Below, piece by piece: positions 8,285 to 26,634 of a stretch of 64,000 bases of DNA. Source of the stretch: Nitrosopumilus sp. Its GTDB lineage: Archaea; Thermoproteota; Nitrososphaeria; Nitrososphaerales; Nitrosopumilaceae. Below the pieces are notes generated by a model, which worked only from the letters and a program-made list of their open reading frames with translations, made no database searches and was not told the DNA's origin. A program made the position numbers and the translations under genes. The stretch spans positions 1,728,001 through 1,792,000 of the forward strand of contig OZ243974.1 of the NCBI GenBank assembly GCA_965214775.1, read 5' to 3'. The stretch's first letter is position 1. Each line of letters begins with the position of its first letter.

Positions 8285-8398
8285 GCAAGAGGTTTCTTGT
8301 CGCTTTGGATAAATATATTTCCTTTGCGAGAAATCAAAGAATCCACCATCACTAAAAATTCTTAATTTTTCTTTGAAAATCTAAAAATCCGCATTTTT

Positions 8399-9199
8399 TT
8401 ACCGGTTGATTTGCTGCATTATCTCATCAAGAACCTGCTGATTTGCCGCGGCAATAAAAGACATCCTGGTTTCATAACTCAGGTCCGCATCTAGCGGATT
8501 TAGATCTGCATCTAAAAGCAGTCCTCCGGCTTCTCTTACAATCAAATACCCTGCTGCAATATCTTGAACCCTGATCTTGCCTCTCAGGTCTATGAAGACG
8601 TCCATCAGCCCTCTGGCAAGCATGGCCATCTCCAATGCATTTGCCCCAAAATGTCTGGTGTGGTTGTGATTCTCAAAAATTGGATGCAATTCCCTCATCA
8701 GGTCAGCAGATGCGCCTGAAGTGTTGATTCCGACAATTTTGTAGACAGGATCCTGGCTGTGCACATGGATTTTTCTGTCATCAAAAAAGGCGCCCCTGTC
8801 TTTTGATGCCCAATACGTCTCTCCGTTTGCAAGGTCGGTTATCACTCCGTCAGTTATTGAACTTAGCCTGTTTTCTGTAGCAAAAGCCAGCGAGCTACAG
8901 AAAAAAGGCACCCCCCTGACAGAGTTTGCCGAACCGTCAACTGCATCCATGATTACAAATCCTCTTGGCGTATCAGACAGTTCGACCCTGCCGCATTCCT
9001 CCCCCAACACAACACATGGAAAATCAATCTCTTTTAGATAGTCCAGAGCCGTCTTTTCTGCAACAATGTCTATGTTCCGGGAGATGTCCCCGCCTGCCCC
9101 CCGTCCAAAGTCTCCTGCAGCATCCTCTGTTCCGGCAAGATCCTTTACATTTTCATAGATTCTGTTTGAGATTTTTTGCAGAATCTCAATTACTTCCAT
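8399..9199 (-). CDS. Inositol monophosphatase / FBPase family protein
   Basis: LGEE, DAVDGS, QDIAAG motifs; start placed at MEVIEIL. Confidence 0.85.
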   Translation of the reverse strand: MEVIEILQKISNRIYENVKDLAGTEDAAGDFGRGAGGDISRNIDIVAEKTALDYLKEIDFPCVVLGEECGRVELSDTPRGFVIMDAVDGSANSVRGVPFFCSSLAFATENRLSSITDGVITDLANGETYWASKDRGAFFDDRKIHVHSQDPVYKIVGINTSGASADLMRELHPIFENHNHTRHFGANALEMAMLARGLMDVFIDLRGKIRVQDIAAGYLIVREAGGLLLDADLNPLDADLSYETRMSFIAAANQQVLDEIMQQINR

Positions 9200-9283
9200 T
9201 ACCGTCCGGTCAACCGGGTCGTAATTTAAGTGAAGAAAATTTTTGTCTTGAAAGCATAAATAACAACAGAAGAGCTTACGCGT

Positions 9284-10402
9284 GTGAGCGGCAAAGATCA
9301 GTCCGTAGTAAGTAAAGAAGCCCTGATGAGCACAAAACCTGGAAAACAAATAATGAAACAGGGCTTGTTCAAATCAAAGGGCTTTAGGTTATTTGACAGG
9401 TATAAAGAGGAAGCAGAGACCGAATTTCCAAATTTTGCCGAAAGATTTGCCAGGGGACTCTTGGATGAAATTAAATCCGACGCTAATCCTGGTTCTACCC
9501 AGCAAGCTTTTGCCGATGAGGTCGGTTCTGCTGAAATCATTTTGGAGGCCTCGGAGATTGAGCCTATAAGATCAAAACTACAAAGCCCAGACGTGCTAAA
9601 AGACAGGGTTCTTCGAATCCTGGACTCGAACTTTGTAAAGATGACTTTTCCTGTCTTCAATGCTCTGTATGACGGCGCAGCTGAATTTTCTGGCAGAAAC
9701 GACGATCCTCAGCTAAGACAGGACATGGTTGAGGGACACATTCTGGCAATTGATCTCAGCGAGCCCATGGATAGAATTGTTGACAAGGACGAGGATTTAG
9801 AGTACCTGGATGATTACAAGCTGATGAATCCGTATATTCTGAAACTGGCACGGGAAAAAATTTCCAAAGGCGGTGATCAAGTATTAAGAGAGTTTGAGGC
9901 CGGATTCAAAGACGCAAGAGCCGGCCAGTATGTCGATGAGAATCTAAAATCAAAACCAACTGAAATCACAGAAGCAGAAATGACACTGTCCTACAAAAAA
10001 TACCGCGCAGTGATGGGAACTGCCGGCAGGAACATGGCATTAGCTGAGAGGCCTTTGGGTGAAATCTTTTACTTGGGCATGGCACGTGCTGCCGAAGGTG
10101 TTGGCTGTGGAAACGAGATAGAGGACTCTGTCAAAAACGGGTTTATAAAAATCCCCTCCTGGCCGCTTTATTACACGTTGCTGTCTAATGATGCAAAAAA
10201 AGGATTTGAGATTACCTTGGAAAAGAGCAATCTGTATTTACAGGATGCAAGGCTTGCAGCAGAATTGCTGCCAGAGAACTTTTCGCACAAGGAATTTCTG
10301 GAATTCTTGTTTTTAACCGTTGACCACTACAACCAATATTGGTACAACCAACTACAAAAAGCCAACAAATGGTCGGAATTTGAATCCAGGCTACCCGGGT
10401 GA
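9284..10402 (+). CDS. Conserved hypothetical protein
   Basis: 372-aa ORF overlapping the RFC-L start. Confidence 0.75.
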   Translation: MSGKDQSVVSKEALMSTKPGKQIMKQGLFKSKGFRLFDRYKEEAETEFPNFAERFARGLLDEIKSDANPGSTQQAFADEVGSAEIILEASEIEPIRSKLQSPDVLKDRVLRILDSNFVKMTFPVFNALYDGAAEFSGRNDDPQLRQDMVEGHILAIDLSEPMDRIVDKDEDLEYLDDYKLMNPYILKLAREKISKGGDQVLREFEAGFKDARAGQYVDENLKSKPTEITEAEMTLSYKKYRAVMGTAGRNMALAERPLGEIFYLGMARAAEGVGCGNEIEDSVKNGFIKIPSWPLYYTLLSNDAKKGFEITLEKSNLYLQDARLAAELLPENFSHKEFLEFLFLTVDHYNQYWYNQLQKANKWSEFESRLPG

Positions 10403-11571
10403 TAAGATTGATGTGGTCTGAAAAATACCGGCCTCAGAGCATCTCTGAGATGGTCGGAAACGAGGAATCCCGTCTGGCAGTTTTAGAATGGTCTGCAAGA
10501 TGGAAAAAGGGAACAAAGCCACTCCTTCTTGCAGGCCCCCCTGGAATTGGCAAGACTACGATGGCATTTCTTGTGGCCAGACAGTTTGGATACGACATGA
10601 TCGGGCTCAATGCCAGTGATGTTAGAAGCAAGTCTAGGCTAAATGAGATTCTAACGCCTGTTTTGAGCAATGTCAGCGTTCTTGGCACTCCCATGATCTT
10701 CGTTGATGAGGTAGATGGAATCCATGGAAGGGGCGATTATGGGGGAGTTGCTGCATTAGTTGAAATTCTAAAGGAGCCGACTGTTCCGATAATCCTTGCG
10801 GCAAATGATGAGGGTGGTGAGAAAATGAAAAGTATCAAAAAGGCAGTCAAGACAGTTTCATTCAAAAAGATTCCCCCCAGACTACTTCGTGTCTATCTGG
10901 AAAACATCCTGAAAAAAGAAAACGCAACCCTGAGTCCCGGGTCGCTGATTAAAGTTGTTGACAAATCACGCGGAGACATACGCTCAATGATCAACCTTGC
11001 TCAATCATATGTTACGGGCTTTAATCCACAAACCGAAACAGCTTTTGAGAATATCAATGTTGAGGACGGGATTAATGCATTCTTCAAGGCCAAGTCTTTT
11101 GATGAGGCAAGAGGCGTTTTGTATTCGATGCAGATTGATCCTCGCCAAAAGATAGGCGCGTTTTATTCTAGCATTGTTACAAGCGATTTAGATAACGAAA
11201 CACTTGCAAAATATTTGGAGATAATCTCTGATGCTGACATCCTTTACGGGAGAATCATTCGCACACAAAATTGGAGATTGTTAAGATATCTTAACGACAT
11301 CCTGATCAAGCTGTATCGGAATGATGACAGGATTAGATATGCGCAATACAATCTGTCTTGGCCGGCGCTAAACAGAATTCGTTGGGATGGCGCAAAAATC
11401 AGATCGCTTTGCTCTGTTATGGCCGGGAAATTACACATGTCATCAAGTGCGTTTGCCACGTTTGGCCTGCCGTATTTTCTGTTTTGCATTAAAAACAACG
11501 GATCCATGGAATTGGAACTAGAGGAGACATTTGGAGACATTATTGAAAAGGAGATTGATCTGCTGCCATGA
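10399..11571 (+). CDS. rfcL: Replication factor C large subunit
   Basis: WSEKYRP, GPPGIGKT, LNASD, DEVD, GDIRSMIN. Confidence 0.88.
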   Translation: MIRLMWSEKYRPQSISEMVGNEESRLAVLEWSARWKKGTKPLLLAGPPGIGKTTMAFLVARQFGYDMIGLNASDVRSKSRLNEILTPVLSNVSVLGTPMIFVDEVDGIHGRGDYGGVAALVEILKEPTVPIILAANDEGGEKMKSIKKAVKTVSFKKIPPRLLRVYLENILKKENATLSPGSLIKVVDKSRGDIRSMINLAQSYVTGFNPQTETAFENINVEDGINAFFKAKSFDEARGVLYSMQIDPRQKIGAFYSSIVTSDLDNETLAKYLEIISDADILYGRIIRTQNWRLLRYLNDILIKLYRNDDRIRYAQYNLSWPALNRIRWDGAKIRSLCSVMAGKLHMSSSAFATFGLPYFLFCIKNNGSMELELEETFGDIIEKEIDLLP

Positions 11572-11900
11572 GCTGGAGAAAGATTCAGATGAAATTCCCC
11601 GGAACCTGCGTTGTATGCAACAAAAAAATCCAAGCCAACGAGATGGGTCTTTGGGCCAAAGGGCTTGGTGTAAAACATGAGAGGTGTGCCCAAGCAAGCG
11701 ATGGCGATGATGATTATGACGAGTTACGATGCATCATATGTGGAAATTCTGCCGGATGCCGACAATGTGAATTGCAAGACAGTTGTGACATTCCCAACGT
11801 CTCCCGGTTCTGTGTATGCAAGAGATGCAGTGAGCAGGAAAATGCTTTTGGATTGTATCAAAAGTCTGCAAAAAAGAAATTTCCGCTAATTGACACTTGA
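11568..11900 (+). CDS. Cys-rich Zn-binding hypothetical protein
   Basis: Several CxxC motifs; overlaps the rfcL stop. Confidence 0.7.
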   Translation: MSWRKIQMKFPGTCVVCNKKIQANEMGLWAKGLGVKHERCAQASDGDDDYDELRCIICGNSAGCRQCELQDSCDIPNVSRFCVCKRCSEQENAFGLYQKSAKKKFPLIDT

Positions 11901-11961
11901 TCACATGTCTTTTCTAGCGATTTTTGAATTTTTTCAAAAGAATGCCTTGTTTGCGATCATG

Positions 11962-12141
11962 CAGTCTTCCCAGAAGTACAGTCGTATGAGTTTACCCCTA
12001 GAGAGTTGATTCGAAATTAGCAGACTCTGATTATTTGTGAATGAATTTGCATAAAACGGTTCAAAACATCAACAAAATGCAGATTATCTGTGAAATTACT
12101 TGAAAAATTCGCACGGCTTCTAATTTCGGATCACCTCTCAG
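11962..12141. mobile_element. Nested element ends: ISH3 TIR (11962), IS66-type MITE left end (~11985), complete IS5-type MITE (12002-12138)
   Basis: CAGTCTTCCCAGAAGTA; GTATGAGTTTACCCC; AGAGTTGATTCGAAATTAG...CTAATTTCGGATCACCTCT, the same TIRs as the IS at 31802-32960. Confidence 0.8.
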
Positions 12142-12153
12142 GGGATTTCAGAA

Positions 12154-12552
12154 TTGGGATGGGCGTACATCGGAACAGGAATCATTCCCATCGTCATAGT
12201 ACTGGCGGTCATAATATCGGCAATCGTGGGCGATACGGCAAAACATAGGCAAGCAAAGCCACCAAGGACGAAAGTCCTGCTGGTCGACGCGATGTATGGG
12301 GGGCTTGATGCCCGGCTGGCAGAAATTGGATGCGAGGCGCAAAGCGTCAGGAAGCTGTGCGCGGAGGGACTTCCGATGAGGTCTGACTTTTCTGTCCTGA
12401 AATACGCCGAGAAGTACGGCATGATTCTGGTGACCAATGACAGGGAGAACATCGCCGGCTGCGAGGAGAACGGCATCCCGTGCATAAGCAGCGGAAAGAG
12501 CCCGTCGGCCGACAAGATCATCCGGGCCGTCAGGGCCGTGGAAGGATCGTAG
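12154..12552 (+). CDS. PIN-like (DUF5615/Mut7-C) domain protein with N-terminal TM segment, probably 5'-truncated
   Basis: VLLVDAM...SDFSVLKYAEKYGMILVTND pattern. Confidence 0.55.
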   Translation: MGWAYIGTGIIPIVIVLAVIISAIVGDTAKHRQAKPPRTKVLLVDAMYGGLDARLAEIGCEAQSVRKLCAEGLPMRSDFSVLKYAEKYGMILVTNDRENIAGCEENGIPCISSGKSPSADKIIRAVRAVEGS

Positions 12553-12869
12553 TGCTGTCATACTGTCCCAATTCCTCGTGTTCCTGGCAGTATCGGCCAA
12601 TCACGGTTCGGCATTAACAGCGTGCTGTCACGCCAGTCGCGCGTTTTATGCCAATACGAAATCGTCACGGTGGAGATCATGACTAGTTCTGGCACGTCTG
12701 ACACCGCAAACGAGATCAGCTAAGTGAAAAGTACCCTGAAATCGAGTAAAACAGAAGCTGGACAGGAGGTACGACGCCTCAATAGCAAGGCAAAATAGCA
12801 ATTCTTGTTTACTTTTCACTTATCTGTTTTTGTCGGCATATTTTTAAAACATGCCATGATCGACCAATC

Positions 12870-15101
12870 ATGACAGGCAGCAAAAGGATGATTCTAATCC
12901 TTTTGCTTACAACATTTGCAATTCCATCAGCTGTTTTGGCATCAGCACAACAGACAGTCAACGAGGAAGACGATGCAAACGCTGACATTCCAGGGGATCT
13001 TATCCCTACTGGCCCAACAGGTCCGGTCGGCATAGTGAATGAGCTACAAAAAGCACACTCTAACCTGTCAGGCATAATGGACGAACACTCCGGTGGGAGC
13101 TATGAGCACGACTATCCGTTTACAATGGCGTATGTTGACCCAGACAGGGAAGAGCTGGTAGTTGCAATGCACCCTTTGGCTGCATTTGTCGGTATTGAAT
13201 ATGATGAATCTGAAATACAGCAGGTGCTAGGAACCGCCGTACCGCTGAAGATAATTTATGCAGAGTTTATCCCGGAGGCAACGCAGACGCAACAAGACTA
13301 TTACGAGAGGTACTGCACGCCAGACATCGCACCGGGATACCTTGCAGTGTGCAAGGCATACGCAAAGATACTGATCAATGGAGGCATAGAGCCCGCAGAC
13401 CTTGGACCATATACAATTTTCATCGACACCTTTGACAACATGAGAAACTGGGATCTGGACGGAGACGACATAGATGACGATGACCTGGGAAGCGGTTATG
13501 GCGTAATCCCGGGGCACACGACCCGCAACGACGTTGCAACAAATGACGATGATTGTGACACATGTGTGATGGAGCTAGACGACAACATAGACCTGTCTGG
13601 CTATGACAGTGCGGCACTGTCATTTTGGAAGCTGGTAGATGACGGCTTTGAGAGTGGAGATTACCTCAAGGTGGAGACGACGCACGACGGAAGCAGCTGG
13701 ACCCAACAGTTCAAGTGGACTACCGGGGACGACCAGTGGCAAAAACACACGTTGTCGATCCCCACGACATCAACGACAGACTTTAACGTTAGATTCACTG
13801 CGCAGATTGCAGATGATGACAACAAGTTTGGCATTGACAATGTAATTGTCAAGGTTGAAAACAATGCAGAGGGAGAAGAATCAGTACAGCCGCCTTCAGA
13901 CACTACGCCGCCGGTAATTACGGTTCCAGACGATATCGCAGGCACTCCTCGAGTGGCCTCTTTGGGATATTACGCAGAGTTTACTGTAACTGCAACTGAT
14001 GATACAGACGGCACTGTGGATGTTACATGTTCGCATGATAGCGGTTACTTCCAGATTGGCGTAACAACAGTTGAGTGCAGTGCAACTGATAATGCGGGAA
14101 ACGCCGCAAGTGCAAGCTTTACAATTACTGTGACAAGCGGTACTCCTGCAGACTCGGATGGCGACGGATACCACGATGGAATTGACCAGTGTCCGAATGA
14201 GGCAAGTGATAGTAATTATGGATGTCCGGAGGAGGAAAGCAGCATGTCCATCTATGCAGGCCAGGAGCATGAGTATACATACGAGCATCTGATTGGCGAC
14301 CAACCACATATGCATAATGGCGGCTCTTACGGTACAATAGGTTTTACTGGAACCGACATGAACGGACAGATCGGCTTTGTCGGCGCAGGGCATACTTTTC
14401 AGCCTGAAGTAAATTTTGACGGAACATCCCACATTGTTCAAAAGCACTTTCACAAATACGAAAACGTCACAGTATCAAACGTAACAGCTGTCAGCCCATT
14501 TGGAAGGCACGGCTCTGGTAATTACAACCTGGATGCAGGATGGGTTCCGTTGGACACCACAAAGGCGCAGATCACAAATCAGATCAAGAGGCTTGATGGC
14601 CAAGTTTGGAGCATGACGCAGGCAAACAGCGCAGACGCGCAGCGAGGAGCCAAGATTGACCTGAGCGGTGCAAAAACCAACTCGAATGGCGTTTTGCTGT
14701 TCAAAAATGCCACAATAATCACACACAACCACAAAAATGAACTAGTCACCATGGAGGGCCATTACCTTGGAAACTACAACAGCATACGGGGCGACAGTGG
14801 CGCACCTGTGACAATTAATGCCACCAACCCCACACCGTCACCATCTGTAAAACTGATTGGAATACACACAGGAACCATATGCAGGTACTCTTCCCCTTCT
14901 GAGGGAAACGACGAGGTAAACGTGTACTCCATATTCAATGGAACTGATCCATACGGGGAATTTGAGAATGGCTATCAAGTTTGCGGATACGGCGCACAGC
15001 GCTTGGCTTCATTGCCAAACTCAAACATATCTTCACTGAGCTGGTACTACAAAGCAATCGTTCCATGGGATCTGATAAAAAATGAGTTTAGCATTCGTTA
15101 A
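12870..15101 (+). CDS. Secreted multidomain S1 (chymotrypsin-like) serine protease: signal/pro region, MAM-like beta-sandwich, HYR, TSP3-like repeat, protease domain
   Basis: Signal peptide; DTTPPVITVP (HYR); DSDGDGYHDGIDQCP; triad motifs GFVGAGH, LDAGWV, GDSGAP. Confidence 0.8.
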   Translation: MTGSKRMILILLLTTFAIPSAVLASAQQTVNEEDDANADIPGDLIPTGPTGPVGIVNELQKAHSNLSGIMDEHSGGSYEHDYPFTMAYVDPDREELVVAMHPLAAFVGIEYDESEIQQVLGTAVPLKIIYAEFIPEATQTQQDYYERYCTPDIAPGYLAVCKAYAKILINGGIEPADLGPYTIFIDTFDNMRNWDLDGDDIDDDDLGSGYGVIPGHTTRNDVATNDDDCDTCVMELDDNIDLSGYDSAALSFWKLVDDGFESGDYLKVETTHDGSSWTQQFKWTTGDDQWQKHTLSIPTTSTTDFNVRFTAQIADDDNKFGIDNVIVKVENNAEGEESVQPPSDTTPPVITVPDDIAGTPRVASLGYYAEFTVTATDDTDGTVDVTCSHDSGYFQIGVTTVECSATDNAGNAASASFTITVTSGTPADSDGDGYHDGIDQCPNEASDSNYGCPEEESSMSIYAGQEHEYTYEHLIGDQPHMHNGGSYGTIGFTGTDMNGQIGFVGAGHTFQPEVNFDGTSHIVQKHFHKYENVTVSNVTAVSPFGRHGSGNYNLDAGWVPLDTTKAQITNQIKRLDGQVWSMTQANSADAQRGAKIDLSGAKTNSNGVLLFKNATIITHNHKNELVTMEGHYLGNYNSIRGDSGAPVTINATNPTPSPSVKLIGIHTGTICRYSSPSEGNDEVNVYSIFNGTDPYGEFENGYQVCGYGAQRLASLPNSNISSLSWYYKAIVPWDLIKNEFSIR

Positions 15102-15621
15102 CTCACCTTATTTTCTGATCCAAAGTGCAAGTAAATTAAATATGACAAAGACCAATACTGCTAATGCCTCCACTACAATGTCACCATCCAAGGCATGCAT
15201 CACAGCTGCAGTGTTTTGCTGCCTCTTGGCACTTTTTGTTCCAGAATCTGCAGAGGCCATCGATATAGAAAACTGCATGGATCGTACAGAAAAAGCAGTC
15301 ATGTATAGGAATTCAGATAGTAGGGCATCCTGTGTAAGTCTGAGCAGTGTTGAGAAACTAGAGCAAAGAGGATGGGGAAGCTACAACCCACTAGATCCCA
15401 TAATGCCTAGGATAGTTGAGTTTGGCACCCTTGGCAGACCATTAGTCACATATCCAATACTTGGCCAAGAAATCACTCCGTCCTACTATGATAGATTTGT
15501 AATGAAATGTGCAAAGCTCACTGGTTACACTTGCAGCTTACATCTTAATAATGACACAGAAATATACAATTTCCTTAAAACTGACATGGAGAAGTACTTC
15601 ACTGTGGATCCAGCTAAGTGA
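15082..15621 (+). CDS. Exported protein downstream of the protease (start probably later)
   Basis: Hydrophobic signal; C...SDSRASCVS...KLEQRGW motif of the kind seen in thaumarchaeal exported proteins. Confidence 0.6.
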   Translation: MSLAFVNSPYFLIQSASKLNMTKTNTANASTTMSPSKACITAAVFCCLLALFVPESAEAIDIENCMDRTEKAVMYRNSDSRASCVSLSSVEKLEQRGWGSYNPLDPIMPRIVEFGTLGRPLVTYPILGQEITPSYYDRFVMKCAKLTGYTCSLHLNNDTEIYNFLKTDMEKYFTVDPAK

Positions 15622-15775
15622 AAAGGTACACATCAGGTCCTATCTAAGCCGGCCAGGGACTTTTCCCCAAGAACTTTTTGATCCTTCCGCACTTGTTGTG
15701 ACAGAATCGCTGCATTGCTGACACGTCTTTTGTACATGCAAGATTGAACGCCGGAACCAGCGCCGCATCGAACCA

Positions 15776-16042
15776 TCAACCCCGTTTCTTGGACGGCCTG
15801 AACGCGACTGATGCCGTAGCACCCATGCAAAAAAAGAGGAATCCAAACGCCGCGCAGGTGATAATCTTGTCATGATTCATCTCCATGAACATGCCCAGGT
15901 ACGACAAGACGGACAGGGACACGATCACGCCGCCAATAACCGTCACTGCAACGGCGGCAAGCCACTCAAATGACACATTGCACCGGCCGCGCGCCTTTCC
16001 ATGGATTGTGCGGGTCATTGTGACAACCCTCTCAAGGGACAC
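15776..16042 (-). CDS. Small two-TM membrane protein (paralog A)
   Basis: Two hydrophobic helices; N-terminus similar to 16154-16402. Confidence 0.55.
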   Translation of the reverse strand: MSLERVVTMTRTIHGKARGRCNVSFEWLAAVAVTVIGGVIVSLSVLSYLGMFMEMNHDKIITCAAFGFLFFCMGATASVAFRPSKKRG

Positions 16043-16153
16043 ATGCCATCACCATATGTCTAAGCACTTAAGCGCGGGATGACCAGCGGTCTCCATTCAC
16101 TGTCATGCTGGAAAGCAGTATCGGCCATGAATCATCGGATGTCACCGCCAGGA

Positions 16154-16402
16154 TCATTTGAGGACGTGTGACCACGCGATGCAGACGGCAAGAATAGCCG
16201 CCAACTGACCTGCGGCCATCAGGTGCCATTCCGCGGCCGGATTCCCGGGCAGGCCAATGAACGCGAGGAACGCCACGCACATAGACACGCCCACAAGCGC
16301 CACCACCATCAGGGGGTGAAACCTGTCAGTGAATGTTTCCCAAATGCGGCATGCCCTGCCGCCGACGGTGCGGGTCACTGTGGCAAGCCTTTCAATGCAC
16401 AT
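16154..16402 (-). CDS. Small two-TM membrane protein (paralog B)
   Basis: MCIERLATVTRTVGG vs MSLERVVTMTRTIHG; shared upstream motif. Confidence 0.55.
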   Translation of the reverse strand: MCIERLATVTRTVGGRACRIWETFTDRFHPLMVVALVGVSMCVAFLAFIGLPGNPAAEWHLMAAGQLAAILAVCIAWSHVLK

Positions 16403-16619
16403 ATGCCATCATGATGCACCGTGGAATTTAAGCGCGGAATGACAGGTGTCGGCCAGGCCGTGTCCTCTTAATCCGGGCGTGAAGGTTGCAGCGTTTCAGG
16501 ACACGTGATGTGTGGTGTTGTAACAAGACGGTCCGTGTCTGGAAACCACGGTCGCATTAGGTGTCAACTGTAAATTTCCAGATCCCTACTTTTTTATAGA
16601 ATGTTCAGATAGAGTACAG

Positions 16620-16714
16620 CGTTGGCGACGGGAATTGAACCCGCATGAACGGCCCGTATGGGGGCCCCTCGCCGAGGCCTAAACTCGGTGGGCTTGCCAA
16701 TGCCCAACGCCAAC
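16620..16714 (-). tRNA. Non-canonical tRNA-like gene, anticodon TAG (nominally Leu), 27-nt variable region
   Basis: GTTGGCG/CGCCAAC acceptor stem, GGGC-ATTGGCAA-GCCC D arm, CCGAG-TTTAGGC-CTCGG anticodon arm, GCGGG-TTCAATT-CCCGT T arm; TATA-like sequence ~25 nt upstream. Confidence 0.8.
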
Positions 16715-16919
16715 GTCATTTCTTGGGCCTGCTTTGTATATTAGATTACAAAAGCTGGATTTCGGGTAACAGTTCAAGGACTGCATTGCAGTGCAGATTG
16801 ACAGACTCAACGCCATCCAGACTGCACGGATTTTCCCTGTTGCAATGTAATCTGAACCCGTGAACAGGATGGAACCTGACGCATCACAAACATGACATGC
16901 AGAACCGCCACACATGGTA

Positions 16920-17324
16920 CTATTTCAGACCCAGCCATGAGAGTCTTTTCAGATCTGCAAAGAATTGCTCATGGACTTCTGCCGGCGGCCGGTTATACGG
17001 AAAATTCTCAAGCACGTACAGCCTCTGGTCTATTATGCGCACCAACCCGAGCTGTTGGTTGGTTCTCAGATTCTCAGAATGTGTCACATCTACTACGGCA
17101 CCCTGCAGTTCAGACTGGAAGCGTTCAAACCATTCGTCATTCCCAAACAGCTTGCCACTGTCACCAGGAACGGGTCTTATGCGCGCGTCAATCTGCCTGA
17201 AAGACCTTCGGAGACTGGATATCTCCTGTCCTCTTTTTATTTTCCTGATTGCCATGGAAATGACATTTACTATTCCAACAACTATAATTCCCCCCATGAT
17301 TGAATGCAGCCATGGCTCGATCAT
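16920..17324 (-). CDS. Membrane-anchored hypothetical protein
   Basis: N-terminal TM helix; same upstream motif as paralogs A and B. Confidence 0.6.
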   Translation of the reverse strand: MIEPWLHSIMGGIIVVGIVNVISMAIRKIKRGQEISSLRRSFRQIDARIRPVPGDSGKLFGNDEWFERFQSELQGAVVDVTHSENLRTNQQLGLVRIIDQRLYVLENFPYNRPPAEVHEQFFADLKRLSWLGLK

Positions 17325-17412
17325 CTGACTTGAAATTGTCTGTGTGGATTTAAAGCGCGGTATGACTGCCGGCCTTGATACTTTTTATAACAACACCGCA
17401 TACATTCAGCAG

Positions 17413-17883
17413 ATGATACTGCAGCCGGAGGAGCGCGTACTGTTCATAATAAACGACAATGCCGTACACGGGGCGACACGGCTGCAGAAATACGGGTTTC
17501 TGCTGCACAAACAGTACCGGAAGGAGCTGTCAGAGCTGGCAATCGAGTACATGGTGCCGTTTTATGACGACTGGAAGGCATACCATTACGGGCCGTTCAG
17601 CAGGCAGCTGGAGGCAGACATAGAAAAATGCGTCGATGCGGGGCTGATAAAAAAGGATGCCGGCAGCGGCAATCACAAGTATGATATATACTCCCTCACC
17701 ACGAAGGGGCGCGTCAAGTGGCGCAGGCTGCTGGCAGAAAAGACGTCGGAGATAGGCGACCTGCACGAGAAGATACGCCTCCTACAGGCCGAGAACCTCC
17801 GCACGCTGCTGACGAAAATCTACAACGCGTACCCCGAGTATATCGTCAACAGCAGGATAAGGGACGAGATAGCATCACACTGA
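17413..17883 (+). CDS. SocA/Panacea (DUF4065)- or YwgA-like antitoxin-family protein
   Basis: TRLQKYGFL, WKAYHYGPFS, YSLT..G motifs; TTTTATAA upstream of ATG 17413. Confidence 0.65.
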   Translation: MILQPEERVLFIINDNAVHGATRLQKYGFLLHKQYRKELSELAIEYMVPFYDDWKAYHYGPFSRQLEADIEKCVDAGLIKKDAGSGNHKYDIYSLTTKGRVKWRRLLAEKTSEIGDLHEKIRLLQAENLRTLLTKIYNAYPEYIVNSRIRDEIASH

Positions 17884-18261
17884 ACTGATCCTGTTGACTA
17901 TCCTCAGGTGCCGGACAAAATATGCCGGCGGAATCGCAAACATGGACGCCAGCAGGATGGACAGCAATGCGAGATCCCCTTCGAAGAGCCCGAACACGGC
18001 AACGAATCCCAGCAGCATTATGACGGACATCGAGAACAGGTCTATCTTGAATCCGACGCTCCTGTTCTCATTCCTGTTGACCCGGTACGTGACTATCTGC
18101 GTGCGCAGTGCCTCCTCCAGTGACTCGGTCTCTGGTCCGCGCTGATCCTTTGCATCGGAGATCTTATTCAGCTTCTTCTCAAAGGACAGTATTATCGCAT
18201 TGTATCTGGTGTCAAGGTACACGAAGCGCGATGTTATTATGATTCCAATGACTATTACCAT
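17875..18261 (-). CDS. Membrane protein, 5' end abuts the IS
   Basis: Hydrophobic segments; starts at the IS5 TIR. Confidence 0.5.
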   Translation of the reverse strand: MVIVIGIIITSRFVYLDTRYNAIILSFEKKLNKISDAKDQRGPETESLEEALRTQIVTYRVNRNENRSVGFKIDLFSMSVIMLLGFVAVFGLFEGDLALLSILLASMFAIPPAYFVRHLRIVNRISSV

Positions 18262-19748
18262 TAGACTTTATGCGTAATCGACCGTGATTAAAAATTCCGT
18301 AGGCTTTTCCAAACGCAAATGCGCTGATCGGATCAAATTACCGCATGCATCTCGTGTCATGACGCACGTAAAAGTCAGTTGCGCCAAAAGAACGTGCGCA
18401 ACCATGCAGCACGGCAATGTGCCCCGCTGACAAGTCAGAAAGAATGGCGGTCCGTACCGCCGTATGTCATGTGTCTGGCAGCAGATGCAGTTGCTGCAGC
18501 AGCTGGCCGTAGTGTTTTTTCCTTTTCAGCATAGTCTTGAGGTTCTCAAGACCCGTGATTATCTGCATGAAATAGTTTAGATCCTTGGCAGTTCCGCCAA
18601 ACGGCATGGTAAGAATGCCATATCTTTTGAGCCGTCCTATGTGGTGCTCCACTCTGACGCGGACCCTGCTTATCTGCTCGCGGCGCCTCTTTTGCGTTGC
18701 AGTAAGATCCCCGTCCCTGGGCTTCTTTGGGGGCTGCCTGTGTATGGCGCCCGGAAGCATCTTTTGAATGCCCTCAAATCCCAGGTCGCTGTAAATCACA
18801 AACGCCTCTTCCGGATCGTCTGCGTTTTTTGCATTCCTCATTGATCCGGTGTGCCTTCCAAAGTCCGGGCCGCCCCCTGCGTTCATCACGCCCTTGTCGT
18901 TGACGCTTCCGTCCACAGTCTTGCCGCAGTGCAGTATGAGGCCGTCCAGGTTCGAGGTAATTATCGTGTTGAACATGTGCCGCTTTTTTCTTCCCGAATA
19001 TCTGGTCTTTCTTGCGGTCCTGTCCCCGGGCCTGTCTACCGGAGTCAGGGTGCCGTCAATCAGGAGCGTCTTTTTTGGGATCAGCACCTCCTCCAGCTTG
19101 CCTGCCGGGGTCTTGCAGATGATGCTTGTTAGCTTTTCGGAGGCAGGCAGGAGCCGGCGCAGTAACACGGCACCGTACCGGAGGTACCTGGACATTGTGG
19201 ACTGGTCGACGTCAAATGTCGCGGCCAGATGATGCTGCGTTGCCTTGGTCCTTATGCTCATGAGTACTGCAAGCAGCGCGTGCCTGATGTACAGTTTGCA
19301 CCGGTTTCCGGCATCGCCGCCTCTTACGTCGTCCTCCCAGAACAGGGGTCTGTCCTCGTCGTCCATGACTTCTTCCGTAAAGCGCTCCAGTATGATCTCA
19401 AATGACTCCTTTGTGCATCCCGTGACGTTGCGAAGGCGCACCGGATCGCCGATTATGCCGTCTGCAACCTCGATTGCGTGCATCCGCAGAGGCGTCCCGC
19501 CGCGCACGACTCTTTTTGTCTTGTTTTCTTCGGACTGCCACAACGAGTCCTCAAACGCAAGCCTGCTCTTCAGATGCTCGTTTTGCTCTACCAAACTCTT
19601 GTTTTGCTCTTGCAGTGTTTGGACAAACTCGACATCTGAACCCATACCGTTAGAGAGCCATTACTGATCTTTATGGTTGTAGGTATGCAAACCATGATCT
19701 GTTGTGTTGTATTTTTAGATCAGATTTTCCAATTACGCATAAAGTCTA
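18262..19748 (-). mobile_element. IS5-family insertion sequence
   Basis: TIRs TAGACTTTATGCGTAAT / ATTACGCATAAAGTCTA, flanked by TA. Confidence 0.85.
18467..19645 (-). CDS. IS5-family transposase (HTH_Tnp_4 + DDE_Tnp_4)
   Basis: FDVDQSTMSR, LIDGT, YSGRKK, YSDLGF, RVRVEHHIGRLK. Confidence 0.88.
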   Translation of the reverse strand: MGSDVEFVQTLQEQNKSLVEQNEHLKSRLAFEDSLWQSEENKTKRVVRGGTPLRMHAIEVADGIIGDPVRLRNVTGCTKESFEIILERFTEEVMDDEDRPLFWEDDVRGGDAGNRCKLYIRHALLAVLMSIRTKATQHHLAATFDVDQSTMSRYLRYGAVLLRRLLPASEKLTSIICKTPAGKLEEVLIPKKTLLIDGTLTPVDRPGDRTARKTRYSGRKKRHMFNTIITSNLDGLILHCGKTVDGSVNDKGVMNAGGGPDFGRHTGSMRNAKNADDPEEAFVIYSDLGFEGIQKMLPGAIHRQPPKKPRDGDLTATQKRRREQISRVRVRVEHHIGRLKRYGILTMPFGGTAKDLNYFMQIITGLENLKTMLKRKKHYGQLLQQLHLLPDT

Positions 19749-20448
19749 ATGTTCCCTTTAGTGACTTTTTGGGACTGTTGCTGTCCCATATTGACAGGGT
19801 GTTTGCAATTCTGTATATGTCAATTTTTCCATAAGGAACCCCCGTAAACAGTGCATCTCTCATCAGATAATCAAGCCTGTCGGCATCCAGCTGGCTACTG
19901 ATAAGCTGTGATACGAACAGCAACTCTTCTGACACCTTGTGACTCAATATGTCGCATACCATCTGTGGGGCTATCTTGTTTCGTTTTAGTATGCCTCCAA
20001 TCATCCCGCTGCGAATTATGTCCTGCGCAAGATCCTCGTGGTTGAATCTTCCGTTTTGAAGGAATTTTTCTGACGCATGTGAGAATGGCCCGTGTCCTAT
20101 ATCGTGTAACAAGGCAGCTACTGCACCTACAGGTCTAAGCCTTTCGCTCTTACGCTTGGTTATCTTTGAGTTCTTCACCACAGAATCAAACAGCACAAGA
20201 AATGTGTGCATTACACCTATGCTGTGTGCAAACCTAGAATGTGTCGCATTCGGATAGACAGCAGATACAAGGCCAAGCTGATTCAGTCGCCTCAGCCTCT
20301 GGAAAAACGGCGTATCGATCAGCTGCCGTATCACAGGATATTCTGAAATATCTATAAAATTATGAACCGGATCCATTATGCGTACAATCTTTTCGCCTTT
20401 TTCCCTGCATGGAACTTTTTTCAATTCGTAATGCTTTGTGCTGCCCAC
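19747..20448 (-). pseudogene. HD-domain phosphohydrolase (SAMHD1/dNTPase-like), 3'-truncated by IS5
   Basis: DPVH, FQRLRRLNQLG, HSRFAHSIG, LLHDIGHGPFSH, DADRLDYLMRD; the ORF ends inside the TIR. Confidence 0.85.
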
Positions 20449-20601
20449 TCGGTTAGTGTGATAGTGGCGGTTAAAAGTTGATCCTAATGTAGTTGTTTAC
20501 TCCAGAATGTACCAATAACACAACTTCATCGGGTACAATGACGCGTGGAATTGAAAAAATGAGGTAGGAATACTGTAAGCGTTCCAATCGCTTTCTACCG
20601 T

Positions 20602-20838
20602 TTGCGTGATCGGGGATCCGAACCCACTGCGGGCTCCGACACCTTAAGGGTCAGGTACCTGCCGACGGCCACCCCGAGGCTCAGCGGCATAGAGGAGTAC
20701 TGGCACCAGGCAAAGCGCGACGTGATGGTCTCCGAGTATTATGCCACCATTGAGATGAATAAGACGCTGTCCGAGTACCTGAGGACTGTCGGATTCGCGC
20801 ATGATGTTATGGAGTATATCGGGGCAAACCCGAACTGA
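20602..20838 (+). pseudogene. IS630-family transposase C-terminal fragment
   Basis: YLPTATPRLSGIEEYW resembles LPPYSPELNPIE. Confidence 0.65.
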
Positions 20839-20849
20839 TCAAAGACTTG

Positions 20850-21270
20850 TGCTCGTCACCATAGTACTCCACGTATGCAGCCAAGCTCTCATAGTGGTGG
20901 ATTTCCTTCTCTATGCTGCCGTGCAACCGTTCCAGCTTGCCGTTGGTCTCCGGGTGGTACGGTTCTGAGTTTATCAGCCCGATGCCGCAGTCCAGCAGCT
21001 CGGCCTCAAATGCAGTCGGCCTCCACGTCCCCTTGGGTATGTTCTTCTTGCTGCGGCCGCCGTTGAAGCACCTGCCGTTGTCAGACAGTATGGCAGCCTG
21101 CATGCCAAATCTGTCTATGGCCTCCCTGAGGGTTGTAACCGGGGTTGTCGCCTAATTGACCTGCTTGGCTCAATCTACACGTTTTCCTGAACCTGCACTC
21201 CTCCAGCACTCCTAGGTTCGGATGACATCGTATGGTTTTCAGAAATTCTGATGAATTAGGCGACAATCCC
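20850..21270 (-). pseudogene. IS481-family transposase remnant
   Basis: ILSDNG, PYHPETNGKLER; similar to 42231-42570. Confidence 0.7.
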
Positions 21271-21398
21271 CATCATATGTGATCATCCCATAGATGTTTT
21301 CAAAATGGCCGGCGGAACGCTGTAATGTCAAAAAAAACAGGATGGCACGCAATCACACGACCGCTCAGTAAATAACCCCCATCATCACACAGAATCTC

Positions 21399-23159
21399 AT
21401 GTGCTCGATTATTGGCTACTATGGAAGTGAGGATGCAGCGCCGATTTTGGTCAAGGGCCTCAAGAGAATGGAGTACAGGGGTTATGACAGTGTCGGGGTA
21501 TCCACGGAAAATGAAAACGAGATTAGGATCAAAAAAGGCACGGGCAAGGTAAACGAGGTAAATTCCAAGGTCCGTCTGGATTCTCTTCCCGGAAAAATCG
21601 GAATCGGCCATACAAGGTGGGCCACCCATGGAAAAGTAACGGATCTTAATGCCCATCCACATCCAAGCAATTCAGGCAAGATAGCAGTCGTACACAATGG
21701 AATTGTTGAAAACTTTGAAGAATTGAAAAGCCAGCTAGAAGACGAAGGATACGCCTTCAAAAGTGAGACGGACAGCGAGGTAATCGCAAATCTTTTGCAA
21801 AAAAATTATGAAATCACAAAAGACGTCAAAGAAACCATTCTAAAAACGGTATCCAAACTGCAAGGACATTATGCCTTTGTCGCAATGTTTGAAAACGGGC
21901 AGTTAGCGGCAGCTAGATTTCATGAACCGCTGATTATCGGGGTCAGACAGGATGACTTTTTTTTGTCAAGTGACGTGCTAGGATTCATCGAGTATACCGA
22001 CGATGCAATTTACATGGAAAACGAAAATTTTGTAATTCTAGAGAAAGGCAAGCTGCAAATTCTAGATTTTGACGGGGAGCGTGCAAAATATGAAATCAAC
22101 AAGGTTTCAAAAGAATTCGGTGATGCATACAAAGGTGATTATGCCCACTTTACATTGAAGGAAATCTACGAGCAGCCTGAAACGATTCTCAAGGCAGGGG
22201 AGAGAACTTTGGATGAAATTAAAAGTACGGCAGATTACATCGCACATGCCAAAAACATCTACATAACGGGCAGCGGCACAAGTTACAATTCAGCCCTGAT
22301 AGCAAAGCAAATCCTTTCAAGATATGCAAAGGTAAAGGCAGAGCCCATCATATCAAGCGAGCTCCAGTTCTCACCGGACACCATCGAAGAGAATTCAATT
22401 TTGGTGGCCATCTCCCAGAGCGGAGAAAGTGCGGACGTTCTTGATGCAGTAAAAATTGCAAAAAAGGCAAAGTGCAAAATTATTGCCATTGTCAATCTGC
22501 TCACATCGTCACTGGCACGAGAGGCAGACCTCACAATAGGAATGAATTGCGGGCCTGAAATCGGCGTTGCCGCAACAAAGAGCTTTACCTCACAGCTAGT
22601 GATCCTCTATAAGATTGCCCGGTATCTAAACGAGGAAAGCTTGAAAAACGACTTTAAAAAGACATCACAGTCAATAGGCAGGATTTTAGAGGATCCCACA
22701 GGTGTCCAGAAAACCGCAAAGGCACTAAGGGACATTTCAGACATTTACGTTCTTGGAAGGGGGATCCATTATCCAATCGCAATCGAGGCGTCGCTGAAGC
22801 TCAAGGAACTGGCATACATCCATGCCGAAGGAATTCCCGGGGGCGAACTGAAACACGGGACACTGGCACTGATAGACGAGAATGTCTTTGTAATAATCAT
22901 CAATCCGGACGATTCGACATTTACAGACACCCTGACAAGTGCAAGGGAAATCAAAGCCAGAGGGGCCAAAATCATCGGAATTTCAGACGTCCATAGCGAT
23001 GTTTATGATTATTGGATTGAAATTCCAAAGATTTCCGAGTCAGAATTTCCGATTTTAGAAATCGTTCCGATTCAACTGTTGTCGTACTATGCTGCACTGG
23101 AAAAGGATGCAGACCCCGATTACCCAAGAAATTTGGCAAAATCAGTTACAGTAAAGTAG
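21399..23159 (+). CDS. glmS: Glutamine--fructose-6-phosphate aminotransferase
   Basis: MCSIIG, EYRGYDS, GHTRWATHG, PRNLAKSVTV. Confidence 0.97.
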   Translation: MCSIIGYYGSEDAAPILVKGLKRMEYRGYDSVGVSTENENEIRIKKGTGKVNEVNSKVRLDSLPGKIGIGHTRWATHGKVTDLNAHPHPSNSGKIAVVHNGIVENFEELKSQLEDEGYAFKSETDSEVIANLLQKNYEITKDVKETILKTVSKLQGHYAFVAMFENGQLAAARFHEPLIIGVRQDDFFLSSDVLGFIEYTDDAIYMENENFVILEKGKLQILDFDGERAKYEINKVSKEFGDAYKGDYAHFTLKEIYEQPETILKAGERTLDEIKSTADYIAHAKNIYITGSGTSYNSALIAKQILSRYAKVKAEPIISSELQFSPDTIEENSILVAISQSGESADVLDAVKIAKKAKCKIIAIVNLLTSSLAREADLTIGMNCGPEIGVAATKSFTSQLVILYKIARYLNEESLKNDFKKTSQSIGRILEDPTGVQKTAKALRDISDIYVLGRGIHYPIAIEASLKLKELAYIHAEGIPGGELKHGTLALIDENVFVIIINPDDSTFTDTLTSAREIKARGAKIIGISDVHSDVYDYWIEIPKISESEFPILEIVPIQLLSYYAALEKDADPDYPRNLAKSVTVK

Positions 23160-24210
23160 ACAGCCTAGCATATTCTTTTTCTGCATTTTCCAGGTACTTT
23201 GCCTTGTCTAGCCCGGACTTTATCATTGAAGAGACGATACAGCCGCCTGCACCAACCCCGTCTTTTGCAAATCCCTCAGAAAACGCCTTCAATCCGGAGA
23301 ATTTTGATCTTTCCAGCTCAGGATCCACTGAAAATGCCGGGATGTCAGAGACTTTTTGAATCAGCTGGCCAAAGTTTGCAGAATCATCGTTTGCAACGTA
23401 TATAGTCGTCCCTATGGCCGTATTCTCGTCCTGAAAGCCGATTTTCTCGGCAAATGCCAAGACTGCTGCCATCTGTGTGCCGCCTGCCAGCAGAACTTTG
23501 GATACATCAGAGGCAGAGCTAAGCATTCCGGCTACAAACGGTATCATGGGATCGCCAACTTCGGCAAGAATGCCGTACGGATGATCAGACTTGATTCTTG
23601 CCAGTGCCGAGGAAACGACTTTATTTTTTAGTCTTACGGGATTGGCAGGAATGCTGGAACTGACCTTTGCATCAAATCCCAACGCCCTTAATACTGCCAG
23701 GGCAGTGGTTGTTCCGCCGGGAATGCATTCGCCAATCACCAGGCAGTCAGTAAGAGAAGCCAGGTTCCTTCCCACGATTCTTCCATAATCCACTGCACGG
23801 GCCACGTCCGAATCAGTCATGGACTGCTCAACGGAGATGTTTTTTCCAAACGGCAAACCGGTTTCAATAAACGGGAGTTGGGGAGCAATCTTGCTTCCGG
23901 CGTTAATTGTAATGTGGGGAATGCTTGATGACTCCAAGGCAACCTTAGTCAGCAGGCCGGGAGTGGGTTTTCCGTCAGGGGTCATCGGTATTTTGTCAAT
24001 TGTTTTACAATACCCGTAATGGAGGTATTCGGCATCTGCAGGAGGAGTGCACTGAATGAGATCCCTTTTAGCGCCTGCAATGGTGATTTCGGGAATTTCA
24101 CAGGTTTCAGTGTATGATATTACAAGTGAAAACAGAAAATTTTTGGATTTTACAGACTCTAAAAAATTGGTTGCCCTGTCTGGATTTCCGGAAATTTGAA
24201 AGGCCTCCAA
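23146..24210 (-). CDS. cobT: Nicotinate-nucleotide--DMB phosphoribosyltransferase (TIGR00303)
   Basis: IPGGTTTA, LAGGTQM, KDGVGAGG. Confidence 0.85.
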   Translation of the reverse strand: MEAFQISGNPDRATNFLESVKSKNFLFSLVISYTETCEIPEITIAGAKRDLIQCTPPADAEYLHYGYCKTIDKIPMTPDGKPTPGLLTKVALESSSIPHITINAGSKIAPQLPFIETGLPFGKNISVEQSMTDSDVARAVDYGRIVGRNLASLTDCLVIGECIPGGTTTALAVLRALGFDAKVSSSIPANPVRLKNKVVSSALARIKSDHPYGILAEVGDPMIPFVAGMLSSASDVSKVLLAGGTQMAAVLAFAEKIGFQDENTAIGTTIYVANDDSANFGQLIQKVSDIPAFSVDPELERSKFSGLKAFSEGFAKDGVGAGGCIVSSMIKSGLDKAKYLENAEKEYARLSTLL

Positions 24211-24214
24211 AGCA

Positions 24215-25470: not shown

Positions 25471-25628
25471 GATTAGAAAAAAACCACATCCAAGATAAGA
25501 GCTTTGGGGATCATGAGTTTCATCCAAGCCGATTTTTTGTTCAAAGCGATGAAATGGCAAGGGATTTTGCGCCTCAAGTAGGAAAATGTGGCAAACGGCT
25601 TTATCCTAGTTTAGGATCATTTGCAGTT

Positions 25629-26243: not shown

Positions 26244-26259
26244 TTTTCAAGACTGTGTA

Positions 26260-26344
26260 TGCGGGCGATGGGATTTGAACCCACGAACTCCTGAGAGACT
26301 AGCCCCTCAAGCTAGCGCCTTTGGCCAGGCTGGGCGACGCCCGC
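26260..26344 (-). tRNA. tRNA-Leu(GAG)
   Basis: Canonical cloverleaf: CTAGC-TTGAGGG-GCTAG anticodon arm, GGTTCAAATCC T arm, A73. Confidence 0.95.
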
Positions 26345-26396
26345 AACAAGATTTTCTTGCATGGTTTTTATAATCCTTGGTTAGTTCTCCGATTGT

Positions 26397-26633: not shown

Positions 26634-26634
26634 T

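Follow-up and report, generated by a model that had tools for sequence, protein, structure and literature searches.

In this work we characterized the tRNA gene that lies on the minus strand at positions 16620–16714 of a 64,000-nucleotide stretch of Nitrosopumilus sp. DNA (the window, to whose numbering positions without a contig label refer). This is a real, extra, accessory gene, whose structure covaries among its homologs while its anticodon switches. We infer that it is transcribed, processed, charged with an amino acid and used by the ribosome, and the reading that we favour, to which we give a probability of about 45%, is that a tRNA body with the canonical archaeal 7/5 arrangement of acceptor and T stems is charged without regard to its anticodon, most likely by seryl-tRNA synthetase (SerRS). 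A first reading made from the letters of the window (the sequence-only reading) had proposed a gene resembling bacterial allo-tRNAs, with an anticodon that does not match its body; this proposal is strengthened by close homologs that carry CAG, GAU or GAA on the same body. It had been said beforehand that the proposal would fall if this were the genome's only Leu(UAG) gene and scored as an ordinary archaeal Leu isotype, or if its homologs lacked compensatory changes; neither is the case, and the finding therefore stands.

The gene was recognized by ARAGORN as a tRNA-Leu(tag) at 16619–16714, one of two tRNA genes detected in the window, and by the Rfam model RF00005, which, in searches of the region or of the genome, matches it end to end over 16620–16714 (46.8 bits, E 6.6e-9); a whole-window scan at the gathering threshold lost it to filters. 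Its minimum-energy fold is a cloverleaf with a variable hairpin (−50.3 kcal/mol, z −3.1), and 1 of 200 shuffled sequences was equally stable. The structural details listed in the sequence-only reading are all present: a U3:A70 pair within the 7-bp acceptor stem, U8 and U9, a variable region of 27 nt with a stem of nine positions (GAGGGGCCC/GGGCCGTTC) and a single mismatch (G.G), the discriminator G73, C at −1 (16715) and a TATA-like element upstream. In addition, the D arm has a 4-bp stem, A14 and G18G19, the T loop is canonical, and the anticodon loop reads UU-UAG-GC. As for the 8/5 arrangement that had been suggested, the pairing of C(−1) with G73 is possible and has no independent support. 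The parts of the gene and its immediate flanks are as follows.

16620..16714, minus strand: accessory class-II tRNA gene of 95 nt, anticodon UAG, G73, CCA not encoded (ARAGORN, RF00005, fold, and 110.8 bits with the covariance model R1 described below)
16647..16670, minus strand: hairpin of the variable arm; its stem has nine positions, one of them G.G, and its 6-nt loop, rich in A and C, is hypervariable within the family
16679..16681, minus strand: anticodon UAG, tRNA positions 34–36, the switching site among homologs
16715..16765, minus strand: leader/promoter block, kept in 7/7 subfamily-1 loci, with AATATA at 16737–16742 (−23 to −28)
16578..16619, minus strand: trailer, kept in 6/7 subfamily-1 loci, with a TATA-like run TATAAAAAA at 16590–16598

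A run similar to that of the trailer, TTATAAAA, lies about 25–35 nt past the tRNA in 11/11 subfamily-2 loci. Two other interpretations of the locus were rejected. A non-canonical intron in the long arm does not fit, as this arm pairs completely as a hairpin in the homologs and shows no bulge-helix-bulge, and the idea of C/D-box or snoRNA-like flanks, raised by eye, was dropped because the motifs are not conserved from copy to copy.

The 95-nt sequence was compared by BLAST with 201 genomes of the same family, the source genome (G000, a single contig of 2.83 Mb with 47% G+C) included. Outside the source genome, full-length copies were found only in G080 (four) and G097 (one), both of another genus, with 89–95% identity; none was found in the 16 congeners, and the other matches were three fragments of 21–32 nt. 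A covariance model, R1, was built from the close copies and a relative in the source genome (C1:1015320, anticodon CAG). At E<=1e-8 it detects members in 9 of 151 family genomes, the source genome being one of them, and in 7 of 27 genera, but in 0 of 9 congeners, with copy numbers of six in G080, seven in G089 and four in G071. The target scores 110.8 bits with this model and the best members 114.9. R1 also finds a truncated GAU copy in G080, with another copy 2.7 kb away; a subfamily of 93-nt genes in genus g2 (four copies in G071, seven in G089) with the anticodons AAG, CAG, UAG, GAG and GAU; and distant single members in G043 (GAU), G033 (UAG), G030 (GAA) and G080 (CAG). The family is multi-copy and restricted to some Nitrosopumilaceae, mostly those with the largest genomes, rich in insertion sequences (IS). 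A class-wide scan with R1 gave 15 hits, 4 in Nitrosopumilaceae and 11 in other families; the latter are nine ordinary tRNA-Ser, one tRNA-Met and one long-armed G73 tRNA with the anticodon GUU. This last gene (G227:C14:3705–3799, in another family of the same class; 95 nt, long variable arm, Asn anticodon) may be a class-II body with a class-I anticodon, or may contain a non-canonical intron. Pattern scans of metagenome contigs gave 0 hits, and a viral origin was set aside, exact-pattern scans of viral contigs having also given 0 hits. This distribution suggests that the family is accessory and has spread horizontally. The relative used in R1 (G000:C1:1015320–1015418, plus strand; L010/L014) is about 96–99 nt long, with a 10-bp variable stem, a CAG anticodon, G73 and an encoded CCA; its acceptor stem contains three mismatches, IS copies surround it, and it is probably a family member in decay.

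The evidence that the structure is under selection comes from 24 members (23 distinct) aligned to R1. Standard pairing is found in 98.2% of the cells, compared with 75.8 ± 1.1% in column shuffles (0 of 500 being as high as observed) and 38–54% when partners are slid, and double changes occur in 26 of 30 pairs, so that compensatory changes are abundant; since the alignment was fitted to the model, these figures are somewhat flattered. All five helices covary, and all nine pairs of the variable stem are among those with double changes. In an alignment of the six close copies a near-invariant body carries UAG (the target), CAG, GAU (three copies) or GAA. Across the 24 members the anticodons are GAU (7), CAG (5), UAG (5), GAG (3), GAA (2) and AAG (2); they are confined to NAN, and identical anticodons recur in separate subfamilies. 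The AAG anticodon of this family, and the UAU anticodon of a separate class-II family described below, were flagged as notable.

Changes were counted by parsimony on a tree of the 24 members made from the body alone, and the counts are rough because this tree rests on about 70 nt. Position 34 changed twelve times, position 36 six times and position 35, always A, zero times; the columns of the arm tip (variable loop) changed 7–14 times each, while the 22 other unpaired columns have a mean of 2.4 changes and a maximum of 5. U33 is kept in 23 of the 24 members, the T-loop contact bases are also kept, and all 24 have G73. These counts and retentions argue that the body, U33, the T-loop contacts and A35 are held, and that positions 34 (wobble) and 36 and the arm tip are free to change or driven to do so. 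No association was seen across copies between the sequence of the arm tip and the anticodon. Among three loci with long common flanks (L001, L002 and L007), identity is 92–96% in the tRNA, 89–94% in a 35-nt promoter block, 82–89% in the trailer and 72–83% in the adjacent intergenic DNA.

The target is an additional gene in its genome, on DNA that congeners lack. The genome has a separate, normal tRNA-Leu(UAG) at C1:1487359–1487443, with A73, a short Leu-type arm and an encoded CCA, and the target is thus not its sole Leu(UAG) gene; the normal gene is 95% identical over 85/85 nt to that of the congener G013. RF00005 gives 52 hits in the source genome and 43 in G013 (complete, 1.70 Mb), and none of these 43 matches the target. 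The target is also unlike the tRNA-Leu(GAG) of the window, as the sequence-only reading had remarked; the latter is 97.6% identical over 85/85 nt to the tRNA-Leu(GAG) of G013. The features that define the surroundings of the target are the following.

26260..26344, minus strand: ordinary host tRNA-Leu(GAG), RF00005 45.1 bits, A73, 3-bp variable stem
11900..21365, no strand: strain-specific stretch around the target, about 9.5 kb, edges approximate (blastn against 16 congeners)
18259..19751, minus strand: IS element with perfect 20-bp terminal inverted repeats; DDE transposase open reading frame (ORF) at 18467–19645

When positions 8000–27000 were compared by blastn, the flanks 8000–11900 and 21365–26985 matched 16/16 congeners with 67–77% identity, and the DNA between them, from about 11.9 to 21.4 kb, had no counterpart in any of the 16 except for a weak piece of a HYR-domain gene in G214, which bears out the proposal that the tRNA lies in an accessory island. 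In G183 the two flanks are inverted and about 42 kb apart. The transposase of the IS element belongs to Pfam DDE_Tnp_4 (2.4e-20), and more than 20 further copies of the element, 93–99% identical, are among the matches listed in the source genome, which is about 0.6–1.4 Mb larger than the congeners listed. The stretch also encodes a 743-amino-acid (aa) HYR-domain protein, an HD-domain protein and several small unannotated ORFs. Within positions 11000–22000 of the window no direct repeat of any part of the tRNA was found, and neither direct repeats nor an inverted repeat flank the tRNA; its use as an integration site was rejected for want of such a direct repeat. As to an association with mobile elements or toxin–antitoxin genes, IS elements and strain-specific DNA are present, and no recognizable toxin–antitoxin pair was found in the domain searches of neighbouring proteins.

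Which amino acid the tRNA would receive was addressed with two home-made covariance models, R2 for Ser (7 sequences) and R3 for Leu (6 sequences), built from host, congener and G080 tRNAs and run with filters off. The target scores 33.3 bits with the Ser model and 38.5 bits with the Leu model, and is thus not an ordinary tRNA of either kind. Held-out tRNAs scored as follows.

Held-out tRNA-Ser L099: Ser model 88.5, Leu model 51.2
Held-out tRNA-Ser L103: Ser model 81.6, Leu model 59.2
Held-out tRNA-Ser L107: Ser model 77.7, Leu model 57.0
Held-out tRNA-Ser L101: Ser model 70.8, Leu model 52.5
Held-out tRNA-Leu L096: Ser model 47.6, Leu model 76.0
Held-out tRNA-Leu L008:2568–2652: Ser model 60.0, Leu model 104.5

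The 38.5 Leu bits of the target thus stand against 76.0 and 104.5 for the true Leu tRNAs. In subfamily 2 the Ser model is ahead in 11/11 members (27–41 versus 20–33 bits), as it is in the UAU family (60–66 versus 43–59); individual loci give 62.2 Ser and 38.7 Leu bits (L040) and 64.3 and 42.8 (L041), with Ser ahead, and 57.8 and 63.5 (L042), with Leu ahead.

Individual identity elements were also compared. The orientation of the long arm is set by the unpaired bases around it, and in this respect the target is of the Ser type, with one unpaired base before the arm and two after it, as in host Ser tRNAs, in addition to G73. It has none of the Leu features of the arm: its 9-position stem, unrelated loop and two unpaired bases after the arm compare with a 3-bp stem, a conserved loop and three unpaired bases in Leu tRNAs, and its G73 compares with A73 in 6/6 aligned host and congener Leu tRNAs. 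The target does have UAG and G37; the tRNA-Leu(UAG) of the congener is nevertheless orthologous to the C1:1487359 gene instead. In the passages of a review cited here (PMC9976931), archaeal leucyl-tRNA synthetase (LeuRS) depends on A73 and on particular arm bases, A73 being required in all the systems it reviews, and G73 is a strong Ser determinant, with G30:C40 a weaker one for bacterial-type and archaeal SerRS. The Ser-like body proposed by the sequence-only reading accordingly holds for G73 and the geometry of the arm, and fails for the overall Ser score and for the 30:40 pair, A30:U40 in the target and G30:C40 in the host. The alternative Sec-like body that it had offered is not borne out. 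Archaeal tRNA-Sec has a UCA anticodon and a long D stem. In the target, by contrast, the D stem is 4 bp long, the anticodon is UAG and the arrangement is 7/5, compared with the 9/4 described for archaeal tRNA-Sec in the part of PMC7609411 cited here; a long variable arm is common to both, as is G73 (PMC7609411), and C(−1) of the target could add an acceptor pair.

Because one body carries Leu, Ile and Phe anticodons, the simplest mechanism would be a synthetase that ignores the anticodon, and because of G73, the long arm and the one unpaired base before and two after this arm, SerRS is the most likely candidate. The nine ordinary tRNA-Ser among the 11 R1 hits in other families, and the lead of the Ser model in subfamily 2 and in the UAU family, also count as marks of the Ser type. 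On this reading the locus is a functional-looking, promoter-equipped accessory tRNA gene of a mobile, multi-copy, class-II G73 family, in which selection preserves the cloverleaf, the bases of the tertiary contacts, U33 and A35, and lets bases 34 and 36 and the arm tip vary freely. A synthetase blind to the anticodon, SerRS being the favoured candidate, would charge the body; a tRNA so charged would be able to misread codons, and the target copy would bring serine, or less likely leucine, to CUA and CUG codons.

Several observations weigh against this proposal. The 33.3 Ser bits of the target fall far from the 70.8–88.5 of the four Ser tRNAs held out; the two models are level in subfamily 1, with a sign that tracks the anticodon, and the target itself is 5 bits higher with the Leu model, an edge that may come from the columns of this model for the NAG anticodon and G37. 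The target has A30:U40 and subfamily 2 U30:A40, compared with G30:C40 in 6/7 and G30.U40 in 1/7 host Ser tRNAs, and the target lacks the CGCAAG arm loop that is found in 7/7 of them. A search of five genomes found an additional, dedicated SerRS, LeuRS or EF1A in none of them; each has one SerRS, one archaeal LeuRS and one match to EF1A domain 3. In 941 long ORFs, CUG is used 29.4 times per 1000 codons (36% of Leu, the commonest Leu codon) and CUA 8.1 times; these codons are not rare, and placing serine at CUA and CUG would come at a cost unless the gene is expressed weakly or conditionally. Some copies look decayed (L009, L020, L052, L014, L015 and one L049 copy), and the copies have about 50 nt upstream and 45 nt downstream in common. 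Contigs of four sequencing runs were compared at the locus, and in run X8 the summed contig depth is 409 over the tRNA compared with 3–50 in the flanks, the contigs breaking there, which calls for caution; it shows that multiple variant copies exist in other samples, and nothing more. Caution is also called for by the three small proteins encoded next to the tRNA and beside other copies, of 134, 179 and 128 aa, for which Pfam and NCBIfam gave nothing significant, and by the TATA-like run conserved 20–30 nt downstream of the tRNA 3′ end in both subfamilies. This run might act as an outward or antisense promoter. As a separate observation on synthetases, the source genome has two frames resembling isoleucyl-tRNA synthetase, of about 1100 aa (C1:1985266–1987653, minus strand, and C1:2234117–2236513, plus strand), compared with one each in G013, G080, G071 and G089; their presence does not track that of GAU or UAU accessory tRNAs.

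Support for charging blind to the anticodon comes, by analogy, from other accessory tRNAs of the same genome, defined as those with no full-length counterpart in G013. SerRS and alanyl-tRNA synthetase (AlaRS) do not read the anticodon, and anticodon switching is seen on bodies of both types, as both Ser-type and Ala-type accessory families exist. A class-I tRNA with the Ala marks G3.U70 and A73, and an acceptor stem close to that of host tRNA-Ala, is encoded at C1:1617530–1617602 (minus strand) with the anticodon CAG (Leu); its only homolog among the 201 family genomes, in G080 (L056, C2:2749119–2749192; 79% identity), has GUC (Asp). The existence of this switching Ala-type family supports the idea that the charging of the target family would likewise be indifferent to the anticodon. 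The CAG gene lies directly downstream of an ORF resembling valyl-tRNA synthetase. Other class-I genes of the source genome are at C1:2744588–2744660 (plus strand; G3.U70, A73, anticodon GAU), at C1:2746341–2746419 (plus strand; anticodon read as UCU, tRNA-Ala-like acceptor stem, G3.U70, A73) and at C1:1226401–1226472 (minus strand; anticodon GAA), the last with the same body as the Ala-type genes but with G3.A70 and G73. Two such class-I genes, with the anticodon GAA, are also present in G013, a congener with a small genome (L077 and L081). Their flanks (TTTGT before, CACAA after) can lengthen the acceptor helix by about five pairs. On the class-II side, a family of 85–91 nt with G73 and the anticodon UAU (Ile AUA) has two genes in the source genome (C1:134435–134519, minus strand, and C1:597064–597149, plus strand) and is found in 3 of the 201 family genomes, the two others being G080 (L026, UAU) and G145 (L055, GAA, Phe). 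A further class-II G73 gene of the source genome, at C1:2472569, has the anticodon CAG.

A bolder extension of this reading, which we consider doubtful, is that ammonia-oxidising archaea with large genomes would possess "programmable" tRNAs in mobile sets, with bodies of the Ser and Ala types repeatedly retargeted through bases 34 and 36 to hydrophobic (and other) codons for deliberate, codon-specific mistranslation. Mistranslation would then be a weapon or an addiction module of mobile elements, or a means of conditional proteome diversification, and the fast-changing tip of the arm could be a second specificity surface for a partner.

A different explanation is that the family is a tRNA-derived repetitive or mobile element, similar to short interspersed elements (SINEs) or miniature inverted-repeat transposable elements (MITEs), made of a promoter, body and trailer cassette of about 190 nt that multiplies in IS-rich genomes, has no role in translation and tolerates drift of its anticodon. 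The copies are numerous and dispersed, with their common flanks of about 50 nt upstream and 45 nt downstream, they are concentrated in the largest, IS-rich genomes, transposases adjoin several of them, and the decayed copies and the behaviour of the X8 contigs at the tRNA are also as expected. There is a precedent in tRNA-like repeats with mismatched isotypes, and in the relevant passage of the tRNAscan-SE 2.0 paper shared flanks are a mark of tRNA-derived repeats (10.1101/614032). Drift, however, leaves unexplained the compensatory changes in all five helices, the frozen A35 (0 changes, compared with 12 and 6 at its neighbours) and the retention of U33 (23/24) and of the T-loop contacts. Moreover, no terminal inverted repeats or target duplications were found around the target within positions 11000–22000, and the same anticodons recur across separate subfamilies. 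We regard this explanation as unlikely.

We give similarly little credit to the proposal that the gene encodes a tRNA-like RNA used outside translation, in conflict or regulation, as a decoy or bait for anticodon-loop nucleases or as a component similar to those of toxin–antitoxin systems. That the two exposed loops, the anticodon and the tip of the arm, change fastest would fit an arms race, the DNA is strain-specific, small unannotated membrane proteins recur beside other copies, and the conserved second TATA-like element after the gene could drive another transcript. Inactive allo-tRNAs are described near toxin–antitoxin systems and transposons in the part of the allo-tRNA paper cited here, whose authors proposed something similar for allo-tRNA(UAU) (PMC5389517). 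The sequence-only reading had mentioned toxin–antitoxin genes near allo-tRNAs and a possible decoy or anti-nuclease role, and the neighbours of the target are the following.

16920..17324, minus strand: 134-aa protein with an N-terminal hydrophobic segment, upstream of the tRNA on the same strand, no family match
17344..17883, plus strand: 179-aa protein, no significant family match, also beside the family copy L009 in G080 (blastp cluster L001/L009)
17875..18261, minus strand: 128-aa membrane-like protein, also beside the L009 copy, no family match

Orthologs of the 134-aa protein (77–78% identity) lie upstream of two G080 copies (L002 and L007), a distant homolog lies beside the G097 copy, and five relatives, all nameless, were found among 5.8 billion proteins. 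In Pfam and NCBIfam searches of the neighbouring proteins no nuclease, PIN/VapC, known toxin–antitoxin or defence domain was identified, the sole signals being matches to WING-49 (E 9e-7), weakly to SLATT_1 (E 0.072), and to an HD domain; this goes against a conflict system at this locus. In addition, the anticodon stem of the target is unlike that of host tRNA-Leu(UAG), which would make it a poor mimic, and a decoy need not be limited to Ser-type and Ala-type bodies.

That the target is a genuine supplementary tRNA-Leu, charged by LeuRS and brought by a mobile element to boost the decoding of CUA and CUG in a G+C-richer genome, is very improbable. The UAG anticodon with G37, the Leu score slightly above the Ser score (38.5 versus 33.3) and the rank of CUG as the commonest Leu codon agree with it. 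It is contradicted by G73 in place of the A73 demanded by LeuRS, as stated in the passages cited above (PMC9976931), by an arm unlike that conserved in host Leu tRNAs, by a Leu score far under those of true Leu tRNAs (76.0 and 104.5) and by the Ile and Phe anticodons of near-identical bodies. Finally, that the target copy is a decaying pseudogene of the family would account for the G.G of its variable stem, which is U.G in 5/5 aligned close homologs and counts against the reading that we favour, and for its being a single copy in the source genome, next to an IS, but this is most unlikely for a copy whose other stems are intact, whose promoter block is conserved, whose tertiary-contact bases and U33 are present, and whose 110.8 bits with R1 come near the 114.9 of the best members.

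Charging by a synthetase blind to the anticodon, the reading that we favour, has parallels in known systems. The bacterial allo-tRNAs (Mukai et al., 2017; PMC5389517, for the parts cited here) similarly have a long variable arm, marks of the Ser type (G73) or Ala type (G3.U70), a conserved body with diverse non-cognate anticodons, and an accessory distribution near mobile DNA with some decayed copies. They differ in their 8/4 or 9/3 arrangement of acceptor and T stems, compared with 7/5 and a 4-bp D stem in the target (8/5 at most, if C(−1) pairs with G73), in being reported there from bacteria only (Clostridia, Proteobacteria and Acidobacteria), in covering 35 codons, with mainly UAU, GCG and GUC anticodons, compared with NAN only in the present family, and in that their charging was demonstrated in Escherichia coli, while the archaeal family is known here from its sequence. 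The nematode nev-tRNAs (Hamashima et al., 2012, as described in the relevant part of PMC4033280) are also multi-copy, lineage-restricted class-II bodies with class-I anticodons, theirs being Gly and Ile and those here Ile; unlike the present family they are eukaryotic, charged with Leu, expressed at a low level and directed to rare codons, whereas the G73 of the target argues against Leu and its codons are common. The table of this 2014 review, in the portion cited, contains no archaeal case (PMC4033280). Among canonical archaeal tRNAs, tRNA-Ser has G73 and the arm geometry in common with the target, and tRNA-Leu the NAG anticodon and G37; the variable stem of both is 3–5 bp long compared with nine positions in the target, which has neither G30:C40 and the Ser arm loop nor A73 and the Leu arm. 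The family thus resembles allo- and nev-tRNAs in outline; it is archaeal, with anticodons of the NAN type only, and has neither the 8/4 nor the 9/3 arrangement by which allo-tRNAs are defined. Searches of the open-access literature found no description of archaeal tRNAs of this kind; the supplementary lists of the allo-tRNA paper, which lay outside this search, could hold archaeal sequences.

If these tRNAs are charged regardless of their anticodon, they would be the first naturally encoded archaeal tRNAs that mistranslate sense codons, and the first to do so on a canonical 7/5 body, in hosts that are nitrifiers (ammonia-oxidising archaea) of global importance. Mobile DNA would then exploit the anticodon-blind identity sets, Ser and Ala, in Archaea as in Bacteria and nematodes. 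Annotation pipelines label such genes tRNA-Leu, tRNA-Ile or tRNA-Phe by their anticodon, which hides a possible source of recoding, and genetic-code engineering in Archaea could use the long-armed body as an orthogonal scaffold.

The source genome also encodes two tRNA-like genes with a 6-nt anticodon loop, read by ARAGORN as a 2-base anticodon, at C1:1816048–1816121 (plus strand) and C1:439306–439381 (minus strand), with RF00005 scores of 52.3 and 42.2 bits, respectively; neither has a full-length counterpart in G013. The DNA that follows the first of these two genes has 70% identity with a stretch that lies 170–460 nt downstream of the target.

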